Part shown: positions 55,337 to 57,729 of the stretch, piece after piece
How the letters are laid out: the number at the start of each line of letters is the position of its first letter
Numbering within the stretch: position 1 is the first letter of the stretch
Assembly (NCBI RefSeq): GCF_003334255.1
Contig: NZ_QOWU01000005.1
Reading direction: 5' to 3' (one strand)
From: Escherichia coli
GTDB taxonomy: Bacteria; Pseudomonadota; Gammaproteobacteria; Enterobacterales; Enterobacteriaceae
Length of the DNA stretch: 64,000 bases
Notes under the pieces: model-generated
Database searches by the model: none
What the model saw: the letters and a program-made list of their open reading frames with translations, nothing else
What the model was told of the DNA's origin: nothing
Position numbers and translations under genes: made by a program

Positions 55337-57729
55337 AGCATTGTCTCCAGCTCTTCCCTCAGCGCCTTACTGTCAGTAATGAGCTCAGGAACCCTTTCAT
55401 TTAATGCCTGAAGTCGCCCGGTAAGCCGTTCCTGCGCCTGCTGATCGCGTTTATGATCTTCAGAGCTCTGAATCAGCGTGTTACGCAGTTGTTCAACTTT
55501 CTCCCTGAATGCGCAGAAAAAGGCATCGATTTCCTGGCGGACGGGCTGGTTAATATCCTGCTCAATGGATGCCTGCAGCTCCCCGAAATATGCCCGGGTC
55601 AGTGACATAACTTCCTCTCTGACCTTGTTGATATTGATCACGCTGCGACTCACATCCTCGTCATAGTTTTCCCAGCCCAGGTCACTGGTGCCAAACCATC
55701 GACAAACGGTTCCCCATACGCCACTCTGCCGACGGCGACGGGTGACGGTCTCCGTTCTTTCCTCCATAAGCGCACTCAGATTTATTTTTACCGCGAGCCG
55801 GGTCTGTAACTGGCTGACTGCCGGAAAACTGATTTTTACGGTAAAGCCCTCATCCTCCAGGCGGGCATTGATGCGACCGGCAATGTTTTCTGTGGCGTAC
55901 AGGGCCGTGCCACGAAAACCTGTTTCAATCCCGCTGACGATTTTCTCCAGCTCAGGCCGGAACTGTGCTTCAGCCTCACGGTGCAGGCTGGTCACGGTCG
56001 ATTCGATTTGCGTCATCAGTTCAAGGGCTTCCCTGCGATCACTGAATTTTATTTCGGGGCTGTCCGGGGCAAAATCTCGTTTCCTGTAATCCTCCCGGCC
56101 CTGGTTGTTGATACCGGACCATTGAGAAATTTTCCCCCATAATCCGGACTGAGACCTTCGTTGTTCTGCGTCTTCTTCCTCCAGCATTTGCTGTTCTTTG
56201 CGTTTACCGCTTCTGAAATAGTCATTCAGCTCCTCTTCCAGTGAGGTGCAGACCCCCGTCAGTAATTCCCGGGTTTTAGTATCGATCTCCTCCATGGCCA
56301 TTCTGACATCAGTGGTCATCTGCTCCTGACAGTCCGCGATTTCCCGGATATCCGCAAGCAGGCTGGTGATATGCGACTGCAGTGACTGAATGCTTTGCTG
56401 TAGCCCCTGATGGCGTAACAACAGGTATTCACTGATATTTTCTGCATTCTGCATCAGTTTTGCGGCGGCAGAGTCAACCGCCAGTGCCGCAGCTCTGGAA
56501 TGTGAGCTCTGTATGACTTCCGTTATCAGTTGATCGATAAGTGAGCCTTCCCACAGGTCTGTCGCCCCTTCAGTTGCCAGTTCACTGTCTTTACAGACGT
56601 ATTCTTTTTTCATGCAACCGAAGGCACCTCTGATAAAATCATCGACCCAGGCTTCATCAACAGGAAGGGTTCCGTTTTTCCGTAACTCATGAAGCGCACG
56701 GTTAGCCAGGTATGCCTGGCGTGAGGATCCGGGATAAACGCGGGAGGCGGGCAGCACATCGCTGTTCAGCATTGCCGGAACTTTCTGGCGTACGGCATCT
56801 GCCCCATCGCCATTGCGGTCTTTCTCATCAAATTTATTGACCAGTACAAACAGGCGGCCGGCTGATACGTCAGCAATGGCATTAAGCTCTTTACGGACGT
56901 CTTCATCCGCTTTTGAGTTCATCTGGGTGTAATCCATCACAGCCAGAACCGCAGAGGCTTTCTGCAGTTGATCCCGCATCATCACTTCCATCTGCGGTTG
57001 TCCGGCCTCATTAGGGCCGGGGGTATCCAGCAGTGTGAGTGTTCCCTGGCATGCATCCATCCCCACCAGATGGCTGAATTCCACGTCGATCACCGGCAGT
57101 TTCTGCACTTCTGCGTATTCATCAAAAGGAAATTCAGTCCCCATTGCCGCAGCAAGACGAACCAGATCGTTTAACGATGCCAGTCCGGTAAAGATTTCCT
57201 CCTCCCCGTGGTATTCATTTTTGAGCCAGCCATCATCCGTCAGAATATCCAGCAGTTCGCGGGTATCCCCGGTTTGCTGCAGGGTCTGTGCGACCTGCTG
57301 TCCTGCCGGGGTGGCGAGTTTTTCCTGCAGTGTGATTAATAAATTGCGGACAGGCTGAATATGTTCCAGATGGAGAACCGGCTCAGTTTTTCCGGGAACG
57401 TGGCGGATGAGCGTCGGTACAGAGGTCATGGGGCGGTTACGGTTAGGCAGAATTTCCTGCCCCACAATGGCGTTGATGGTGGTTGATTTGCCTGCTTTCA
57501 TCGTGCCGACAACAGCCAGCACCATCTCCCTGCGGGCGGTTTTGATTTGTTCGCCCTCCAGCTCCTCAATTCTTTTCAGTGCTTTCTGTTTATCAAAAAG
57601 CAGTCTGTTTTCGTTCTTACTGTCAGATAACACATCTGGCTCCTCAACCATTTGCCGGAGCAGATTAATGTTCAGTTGCAAAAGTCGGTCGGCTTCATCA
57701 CAAAGCAGGGCGATGTTCTTTTCGTGCAT
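55333..57729 (-). CDS. dynamin-like large GTPase
   Basis: 798-aa ORF; G1 GTMKAGKST, G3 DTPG, G4 NKFD; long helical C-terminal region; RBS AGGAAGG upstream of the ATG at 57727..57729. Confidence 0.8.
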   Translation of the reverse strand: MHEKNIALLCDEADRLLQLNINLLRQMVEEPDVLSDSKNENRLLFDKQKALKRIEELEGEQIKTARREMVLAVVGTMKAGKSTTINAIVGQEILPNRNRPMTSVPTLIRHVPGKTEPVLHLEHIQPVRNLLITLQEKLATPAGQQVAQTLQQTGDTRELLDILTDDGWLKNEYHGEEEIFTGLASLNDLVRLAAAMGTEFPFDEYAEVQKLPVIDVEFSHLVGMDACQGTLTLLDTPGPNEAGQPQMEVMMRDQLQKASAVLAVMDYTQMNSKADEDVRKELNAIADVSAGRLFVLVNKFDEKDRNGDGADAVRQKVPAMLNSDVLPASRVYPGSSRQAYLANRALHELRKNGTLPVDEAWVDDFIRGAFGCMKKEYVCKDSELATEGATDLWEGSLIDQLITEVIQSSHSRAAALAVDSAAAKLMQNAENISEYLLLRHQGLQQSIQSLQSHITSLLADIREIADCQEQMTTDVRMAMEEIDTKTRELLTGVCTSLEEELNDYFRSGKRKEQQMLEEEDAEQRRSQSGLWGKISQWSGINNQGREDYRKRDFAPDSPEIKFSDRREALELMTQIESTVTSLHREAEAQFRPELEKIVSGIETGFRGTALYATENIAGRINARLEDEGFTVKISFPAVSQLQTRLAVKINLSALMEERTETVTRRRRQSGVWGTVCRWFGTSDLGWENYDEDVSRSVININKVREEVMSLTRAYFGELQASIEQDINQPVRQEIDAFFCAFREKVEQLRNTLIQSSEDHKRDQQAQERLTGRLQALNERVPELITDSKALREELETML

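Follow-up and report, generated by a model that had tools for sequence, protein, structure and literature searches.

The closest characterised relative of the protein studied here is RdcA of Escherichia coli K-12 (also named CrfC or YjdA), a dynamin-like protein which activates DgcE through the DgcE MASE1 domain and binds its partner RdcB tightly (PMC6510439). RdcA is active in its nucleotide-free form, RdcA/CrfC oligomerises, and CrfC carries a beta-clamp-binding motif, QLALP (PMC6374313). The protein is described as soluble and devoid of a typical membrane-binding motif (PMC6510439; PMC6374313), and the C-terminal half of the family as devoid of similarity to known families (PMC6510439). Here we analyse a paralog of RdcA encoded in a 64,000-nucleotide stretch of E. 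coli DNA (the window; contig NZ_QOWU01000005.1 of assembly GCF_003334255.1), the C-terminal half of which contains two similar Trp- and Gly-rich motifs (motif 1 and motif 2). The motifs might be two elements at the distal tip of the trunk of a BDLP/mitofusin-class dynamin and together form a membrane-binding 'paddle', an interpretation that we regard as evenly poised between right and wrong.

Membrane binding at trunk-tip connections is known from BDLP, IniA and DynA. In BDLP of Nostoc punctiforme, the top Foldseek match to the structural model of the window protein (2j69, E = 8e-14), the third and fourth trunk helices flank the paddle (PMC6715688), which sits between the last trunk helices at a chain position equal to that of motif 2 (~83-87% along the sequence) and also mediates dimerisation. 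However, the BDLP paddle is a helical hairpin, whereas the window protein is predicted to have a beta-hairpin with a 9-residue amphipathic helix and, where the trunk first turns, a further element that is disordered; in sequence-profile searches of the PDB, BDLP aligned in the N-terminal helices and the G domain only, and the paddle equivalence is not shown by alignment. In IniA, three long helices and a long loop parallel to them make up the trunk, and the long loop connects to a basic, lipid-interacting loop at the distal end (PMC6715688). This loop precedes the last trunk helix, the same order as helix 565-626, coil 627-655, motif 2 and helix 700-758 of the window protein, and IniA 500-602 gave a marginal profile match to residues 699-797 (E = 0.18). 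The IniA loop differs in being short, binding mainly by R488/K489, and occurring as a single copy with neither a Trp-rich helix nor a lipase partner. In DynA of Bacillus subtilis, mutation of the D1 stalk-tip site (K360/F363-365/K367) abolishes membrane binding and exchange of F for W keeps it; the site is required for phage protection, and lysines at the Mx stalk tip are cited in the DynA literature. As in the window motifs, basic residues flank an aromatic cluster at the DynA stalk tip, but DynA is a two-headed fusion dynamin with a single site and no patatin or YjcZ partner.

The window gene (55333..57729, on the minus strand, as are the other window genes and protein segments given below) encodes 798 amino acids. 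RefSeq labels the product 'dynamin family protein', and Pfam Dynamin_N (PF00350) matches residues 71-299 (E = 1.6e-17). It aligns with K-12 RdcA over the full length (33% identity), and the CrfC model of NCBIfam (NF007368) is its best model; because the score of 556.2 bits does not reach the curated cut-off of 1146, the protein is not an RdcA/CrfC equivalog. Both proteins share the dynamin-like G domain (K82/T103 equivalents) and the same gene pair with overlapping stop and start codons. RdcA, however, is a core gene, whereas the window paralog is island- or plasmid-borne and belongs to a cassette whose third gene, encoding a patatin, is absent from RdcA loci. An AlphaFold2 (AF2) model has the BDLP/mitofusin/SynDLP/IniA type of fold, with a helical neck and trunk built from N- and C-terminal helices around the G domain, and by sequence and model the protein is assigned to the BDLP/mitofusin class of the dynamin superfamily.

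The internal repeat and its predicted structure

Motif 1 (residues 524-553, 56071..56160; RRSQSGLWGKISQWSGINNQGREDYRKRDF) and motif 2 (residues 664-693, 55651..55740; RRRRQSGVWGTVCRWFGTSDLGWENYDEDV) are offset by 141 residues. The best ungapped 30-residue self-match scores 78 with BLOSUM62, compared with 36 for the next diagonal and a shuffled maximum of 31.7 +/- 4.1 (highest 41), and a gapped local alignment of residues 481-620 with 621-760 scores 83 (300 shuffles: 30.7 +/- 5.6, highest 56). An earlier note on this DNA, made from the sequence alone, had reported a duplicated motif in the stalk of a dynamin-like protein: the duplication is real, its coordinates were correct to within a few bases, the dynamin assignment agrees with the Pfam match and the fold, and in the AF2 model both motifs indeed lie in the C-terminal helical stalk. 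Each motif consists of a basic run and a short amphipathic helix, SG(L/V)WGxxxxW(S/F)G, after which come a strand and a ~60-residue trunk helix, and the gapped alignment runs beyond the motifs into this strand and long helix ('DSPEIKFSDRREAL...' versus 'SRSVININKVREEV...'), suggesting that the pair reflects an old internal duplication of a tip module. Module A (residues 524-626, 55852..56160), delimited by self-alignment and by comparison of family profiles with hhalign, comprises a basic/amphipathic patch, a strand and a 62-residue helix; module B (residues 664-758, 55456..55740), delimited in the same way and by the secondary structure of the model, has the same elements with a 59-residue helix. 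When the family profiles of residues 500-626 and 640-760 were compared, 87-90 columns aligned in register (probability 48-50%, P = 1.6e-4), and the alignment persisted without the Escherichia sequence; control regions gave probabilities of 1-7% and P values of at least 0.0056. The profile comparison thus supports, to a moderate degree, the view that the tip module was duplicated long ago in the family.

The motifs are identical at 48/90 positions of their DNA and a longer stretch at 53/108, compared with 26/108 (24%) in an unrelated in-frame control. Synonymous codons differ at most of the residues shared by both motifs (e.g., TCC versus AGT for Ser), so the likeness must be old or convergent. 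The same differences rule out a recent duplication or an assembly artefact as the origin of the repeat, and also a recent conversion of motif 1 by motif 2 within the gene. The strong likeness of the two motifs is confined to one Escherichia allele family, and it probably reflects either an old secondary copying or the retention of an ancestral state, superimposed on the older module duplication. Chance or compositional coincidence, without common origin or role, might be suspected because the motif 1 loop is unlike motif 2 in most homologues, among them half of the E. coli alleles, and because synonymous sites are saturated; against a self-match of 78 (highest shuffled value 41), a DNA identity of 49% versus 24% in the control, and ~90 profile columns in register without the Escherichia sequence, such a coincidence is highly improbable.

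The AF2 model of the full 798-residue protein reached a predicted local distance difference test score (pLDDT) of 89.1 and a predicted template modelling score (pTM) of 0.83. Secondary structure was assigned with DSSP: the G domain is followed by helix 447-507, helix 511-527, the low-confidence motif 1 stretch, strand 559-562 and helix 565-626, and then by a 29-residue coil (627-655), strand 656-667, helix 671-679, strand 686-699, helix 700-758 and two terminal helices. The core of motif 2 is the amphipathic helix 671-679 (VWGTVCRWF, pLDDT 75-86), which sits at the turn of a beta-hairpin formed by strands 656-667 and 686-699 (55633..55764) in both AF2 models, the second being that of a construct without the G domain. 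Structure prediction, which the earlier note had proposed as a check, thus yielded an ordered motif 2, but motif 1 is predicted to be disordered (pLDDT blocks 66, 48 and 45; residues 536-548 below 50) apart from a short helix at 530-537. Strand 559-562, which closes the motif 1 region, is assigned in both models, and since the motif 2 hairpin is the only strand partner that the two models share, it most simply pairs with this hairpin; the three-stranded tip sheet that would result would place both motifs at the same distal end of the trunk. Helical wheels of the two motifs are in the same register, with the hydrophobic face (L/V, W, I/V, S/C, W, S/F) at 180-340 degrees and Gly/Ser/Thr/Arg or Lys (G, S, T, K/R, Q) on the other side at 0-140 degrees.

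Conservation, alleles and the patatin-linked clade

We searched 1.84 billion representatives (50%-representative set) for homologues, obtained 447 relatives at E <=1e-30, and counted motif columns in 111 full-length representatives which are at most 41% identical to the query. A word-indexed search, in contrast, gave nothing but near-identical E. coli proteins among its best 120 matches. Column counts replaced a strict regular-expression search, which found motif 1 in Escherichia only and undercounted motif 2. The residues of motif 2 recur widely: R666 in 74 of the 111 representatives, G670 in 68, W672 in 67, G673 in 72, C676 in 44 (K in 34), W678 in 46 (F in 21), F679 in 79, D683 in 68, W684 in 86, G685 in 99, E687 in 72 and Y689 in 66. 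Motif 2 is a family signature, RRQSGxWGxxCxWFxTxDWGWExY. At residue 684, within the best-conserved part of motif 2, the window allele itself has Leu, the other common E. coli allele sharing the Trp of the 86 representatives (DWGWE). Motif 1 shows no sequence conservation and is part of a hypervariable, gap-rich tip loop of variable length (residues 508-564, 56038..56208, delimited by loop comparison), which is closed by a conserved DFDPxxPxIxF and strand 559-562, and its Trp-rich, motif-2-like form is specific to Escherichia. Of the conserved pair of loops envisaged in the earlier note, therefore, one is a signature of the family and the other varies in sequence even among E. coli alleles. In an orphan homologue (L024; a single metagenome-assembled genome, MAG), encoded beside fimbrial genes and without partner genes, motif 2 is intact and the motif 1 loop is short.

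Among 118 Escherichia cluster representatives, 90% of the motif 1 columns and 70% of the motif 2 columns are variable, compared with 26% overall. The window allele and the common 794-residue allele are 96.7% identical over the cassette and 100% identical over residues 1-360 (0% nucleotide divergence), whereas nucleotide divergence between these two main alleles amounts to 46% and 24% at residues 511-570 and to 14% and 8% at residues 661-720. The RdcB-like and patatin partners are 97-100% identical between the alleles, their genes being mostly 0-4% divergent, with 9% in the last interval of the patatin gene. Both motif regions (55651-55740 and 56038-56208 of the window; L092, 4001-8354) are hot spots of divergence within E. 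coli. Motif 1 occurs in two types that are unrelated in sequence and each present in about a quarter of the complete E. coli genomes: type A, motif-2-like (RRSQSGLWGKISQWSG; ~1,186 genomes at a query coverage of at least 80%), and type B (PRERNAFAFFHDIFGTG; ~1,425 genomes, including Nissle 1917). Certain type A variants come nearer still to motif 2 (...GINNPGWENY...). A basic stretch and an aromatic patch are present in both types, and the variability of motif 1 fits a flexible loop bound by composition alone and also diversifying selection on a specificity loop.

A scan with one genome per species yielded 80 loci, 31 patatin-linked (including that of the window) and 49 RdcA-type, with a patatin gene in 31/31 of the former and 0/49 of the latter. 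All 31 patatin-linked loci consist of dynamin, YjcZ and patatin genes, and they occur in Escherichia, Pantoea, Erwinia, Pseudomonas, Gallionella, Paraburkholderia, Thiodictyon, Serratia, Budvicia and one Pontiellaceae MAG; the RdcA-type loci are 49 Enterobacteriaceae core loci with RdcA and RdcB alone. In the patatin-linked proteins the motif 1 loop is 45-70 residues long and K/E/R-rich, with a Gly/aromatic patch of 10-14 residues (e.g., SGLFGEISRLFGV, SLWGGFFKGWTS, DGFFGTALASFLG and STFGAFFSPFF), and an Arg cluster stands just before motif 2. In the RdcA type the loop measures 21-32 residues and has no patch (K-12 RdcA is without the loop), and motif 2 reads GxMRETVSRWLNNPGWGWDDY, with the Arg cluster gone, W672 replaced by R, C676 by S or A, and F679 by L; motif 2 is degenerate throughout this type, the K-12 copy being RLGVVRETFSRWLNQPDWGR. 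The Arg cluster, W672, C676, F679 and the long motif 1 loop of the window protein are thus lost or absent in RdcA. The best 11-mers on the Wimley-White interfacial scale have medians of -2.6 kcal/mol in the motif 1 loop and -3.7 kcal/mol in motif 2 of the 31 patatin-linked proteins, compared with +1.5 and +1.0 in the 49 RdcA-type proteins, and the net charge before motif 2 is +4 versus +1.

A candidate membrane tip and its alternatives

If the motifs act as a paddle, the Arg clusters would be attracted to the anionic lipids of the inner membrane and the Trp/Phe faces would partition into the membrane interface, by which the GTPase, the RdcB-like partner and the patatin phospholipase would be positioned at the cytoplasmic side of the membrane, as dictated by the nucleotide state. 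By analogy with RdcA, the nucleotide state may gate the complex, and contact between the tip and the inner membrane would enable the patatin lipase to act. Motif 2 would be the conserved element of the paddle, carried on the beta-hairpin, and motif 1 a flexible, fast-evolving loop that keeps only its basic and aromatic composition. We infer the tip location, the membrane binding and the role of the cassette from several lines of comparison: the chain order matches the IniA trunk and the position of the BDLP paddle, the motifs correspond in chain position to the two trunk-tip connections which bind membranes in BDLP, IniA and DynA, and the DynA tip and R488/K489 of IniA are precedents, the former a direct one, for tip sites of basic and aromatic or hydrophobic residues that membrane binding requires. 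The membrane-insertion paddle proposed in the earlier note is favoured by the basic and amphipathic character of the motifs, by the contrast between the clades and by the chain position, while insertion as such is deduced from these features.

Several observations weigh against a paddle. A patch of -1.5 kcal/mol or below is found in the motif 1 loop of just 39% of the 111 family representatives, and the interfacial energies, at -3 to -4 kcal/mol, are modest. The contrast between the clades corresponds to about one evolutionary transition, the RdcA clade being a single Enterobacteriaceae lineage, so that P values overstate independence. The tip location and the solvent exposure of the Trp residues are read from the predicted topology only. 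The residues most conserved in motif 2 (W684, G685, E687 and Y689) are more likely to be structural, judging from their retention in soluble RdcA too, and RdcA acts by protein contacts (with the DgcE MASE1 domain, RdcB and the beta clamp), not by direct lipid binding.

A rival reading, which the earlier note had also considered, is a docking surface for the patatin or the RdcB-like protein, which the motifs, or the Trp/Cys/Arg features of the patatin-linked clade, might form instead of a lipid site. In its favour, translation of the three genes is coupled and no member of the cassette clade lacks any of them, loss of the hydrophobic and basic features coincides exactly with the absence of patatin, RdcA binds RdcB tightly (PMC6510439), and both clades, each with an RdcB-type partner, retain the WGWExY core of motif 2. 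We modelled a fused construct with AF2 (RdcB-like protein, Gly-Ser linker, patatin, linker, dynamin residues 400-798) from a mixed paired and unpaired alignment (A3), in which 10 C-terminal dynamin residues sit in emptied patatin tail columns; another alignment of dynamin, RdcB and patatin (A2) was discarded, as MAFFT had pulled 15-26 C-terminal dynamin residues into RdcB columns. The run, a weak test with five paired rows, linkers and no predicted aligned error, did not yield a complex of high confidence (pTM 0.41): motif 1 again had pLDDT values under 50 (fusion residues 865-891), and the motif 2 blocks reached 72/66/73 compared with 86/75/82 alone, and so docking gained no support from it. 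Moreover, docking should entail co-variation with the partners, yet motif 1 was swapped between alleles (46% divergence) whose partners are 97-100% identical, and RdcB binding cannot need the patatin-clade features because RdcA, which is without them, still binds RdcB. On balance we consider docking unlikely.

Another reading, to which we give little probability, is that the tip loops determine specificity under diversifying selection, for example by recognising a component of a phage or other invader, with membrane affinity secondary or coexisting. The L4 loop of MxA, at the stalk tip of a member of the dynamin family, is likewise disordered, basic and fast-evolving; MxA, however, is eukaryotic, homologous only in the superfamily fold and without an aromatic amphipathic helix, so the comparison is an analogy only. 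Allele divergence centred on both motifs next to 0% over residues 1-360, the excess of variable columns in both motifs (90% and 70% versus 26%), the two unrelated motif 1 types at similar frequency (each about a quarter of complete E. coli genomes), and the mobility of the cassette (islands, plasmids) and its proximity to defence-type genes in unrelated loci would all suit a specificity loop. However, a divergence of 46% points to segment replacement by recombination rather than to point substitutions, disordered membrane loops drift freely if their composition is kept, as it is here, no defence phenotype is known, and PADLOC v2 has no matching model. A purely architectural role, as part of a small beta-sheet/helix cap closing the trunk or as a self-assembly interface without a direct ligand, would agree with the predicted order of motif 2 (pLDDT 75-86, regular strand-helix-strand), with its top-conserved residues being common to soluble RdcA, with the retention in RdcA of hydrophobic positions 671, 675, 678 and 679, which could pack on the sheet, and with self-assembly in relatives (RdcA/CrfC oligomerises, and BDLP dimerises via its paddle). 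It would leave unexplained the Arg cluster and the additional exposed W672 and C676 (Arg and Ser/Ala in RdcA), the basic and aromatic patch in disordered, unalignable loops of homologues, and the allelic hypervariability, interfaces usually being conserved, and we likewise judge it improbable. The membrane-binding paddle at the trunk tip thus remains our preferred reading.

The cassette and its genomic setting

Upstream of both motifs, the GTPase domain (~residues 68-335, 56725..57528) has intact G1 (GTMKAGKS, 75-82), G2 (T102), G3 (DTPG, 235-238) and G4 (NKFD, 298-301) elements; K81, S82, T102, D235, G238, N298 and D301 are invariant or nearly so among 113 homologues, and by sequence the residues for catalysis of GTP hydrolysis are present. 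The N-terminal beta-clamp-binding motif of K-12 CrfC (41-QLALP) was not found in the alignment of the paralog, where it faces NRLLF, without Gln (residues 41-45, 57600-57610 of the window), and the role of CrfC at the replication fork is probably not transferable to this protein. The stop codon of the dynamin gene overlaps the start of an RdcB/YjcZ-like partner gene (301 codons, 54431..55336), which accordingly stands adjacent to the dynamin gene as in RdcA/CrfC; its product, labelled 'diguanylate cyclase regulator RdcB family / YjcZ-like' in RefSeq, has 30% identity to K-12 RdcB (BLASTP, E = 2e-37), and PF13990 is found beside dynamin homologues in other loci. The stop codon of this second gene overlaps the start of a gene for a patatin-like phospholipase (356 codons, 53364..54434), recognised by its GGGxxG oxyanion (SGGGAVGAY), GxSxG (GASIG) and DGG (GDGGM) elements. 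NCBIfam/PADLOC lipase matches of the latter are weak, N-terminal and below the cut-offs (RssA and CBASS lipase models), and orthologues with PF01734 occupy the same position in distant loci.

The three-gene cassette (53364..57729; loci L003, L006, L008-L032 and L088-L092) ranges from Enterobacterales to Burkholderiales, Chromatiales and a Pontiellaceae MAG, and it is also found on plasmids of Klebsiella, E. coli and Enterobacter. About 1,900 of 5,426 complete E. coli genomes matched a 6.9-kb query at a coverage of at least 80%; carriers, including O104:H4 outbreak strains and Nissle 1917, make up about half of the complete E. coli genomes. In the window the cassette lies in a CP4-44-like island, with yeeS, yeeT, cbtA/cbeA, an antirestriction gene, a DUF932 gene and a YeeP-like GTPase nearby. 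Unrelated cassette loci carry WYL-WCX regulators (in two, just upstream), a NERD/UvrD helicase, a PLD and SNF2 pair, and toxin-antitoxin pairs, and such defence-type neighbours suggest, by association, that the cassette may have a defence or stress role. LeoA/LeoBC (Eleos), which is listed as an anti-phage system in PADLOC, also comprises island-encoded bacterial dynamins, but a full-length match to it was not obtained: the LeoBC match (E = 8.6e-5) covers residues 29-89 only, and the dynamin has no LeoA match. Scans of the cassette with PADLOC v2 found no matching system model, those with PHROGs no meaningful system-level match, and a search of the accessible literature for a dynamin-patatin or dynamin/YjcZ/patatin system returned annotation-level mentions only, one genome paper listing the genes. 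A table in PMC7696260 on olaquindox-evolved E. coli ATCC25922 gives 'mutations' in crfC (122), rssA (patatin; 75), yeeP (10) and yjcZ (3); these counts probably reflect the island cassette, or mis-mapping of reads among alleles or paralogs.

It is conceivable, and we put it forward tentatively, as somewhat doubtful, that the cassette is a mobile and widespread membrane-targeted defence or suicide module, in which a GTP-gated dynamin with two tip elements, one conserved and one hypervariable, brings a phospholipase to the inner membrane and motif 1 diversifies trigger or target specificity (as in the L4 loop of Mx), and that K-12 RdcA/RdcB would be a domesticated derivative which lost both its lipase and its membrane tip. 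For the C-terminal half of the family, the analysis proposes an anatomy, a BDLP-type trunk whose tip is a duplicated module of basic-aromatic patch, strand and helix, and a contrast of structure and function emerges between the patatin-linked paralogs on islands and plasmids, which keep the membrane-type tip, and the soluble core RdcA, which lost it. The window protein is best described as a BDLP-class dynamin that is encoded with a lipase and whose predicted basic-aromatic tip is duplicated and in part hypervariable. Natural alleles differ at both motifs, which are also obvious targets for mutagenesis and could show how the system reaches the place where it acts; the uncharacterised cassette around them is of more interest than the motif alone.

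A YeeP-like small GTPase gene (303 codons, 57947..58858) lies directly upstream of the dynamin gene and has weak PADLOC matches to LeoBC/LeoA; it is frameshifted in the O104:H4 copy (L002), and a Paraburkholderia locus (L088) has a gene for a 347-residue IIGP-type GTPase at a similar upstream position. Two small open reading frames after the patatin gene (52119..52529 and 52545..53336) encode signal-peptide-like N-termini, the 136-residue product matching phrog_8968 (unknown function); the pair also follows the cassette at another E. coli island site (L092) but does not follow it in other genera. On a metagenomic contig (L005, 7123-10674) a degraded cassette with split YjcZ and patatin genes is followed by two dynamin-family genes (889 and >347 amino acids). 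Elsewhere in the window, a 10-kb region (14000-24000) has a G+C content of 0.29-0.34, compared with ~0.5 in the remainder, and is likely to be the O-antigen gene cluster, because the equivalent island in another strain (L002) lies beside sbcB/dacD/sbmC.

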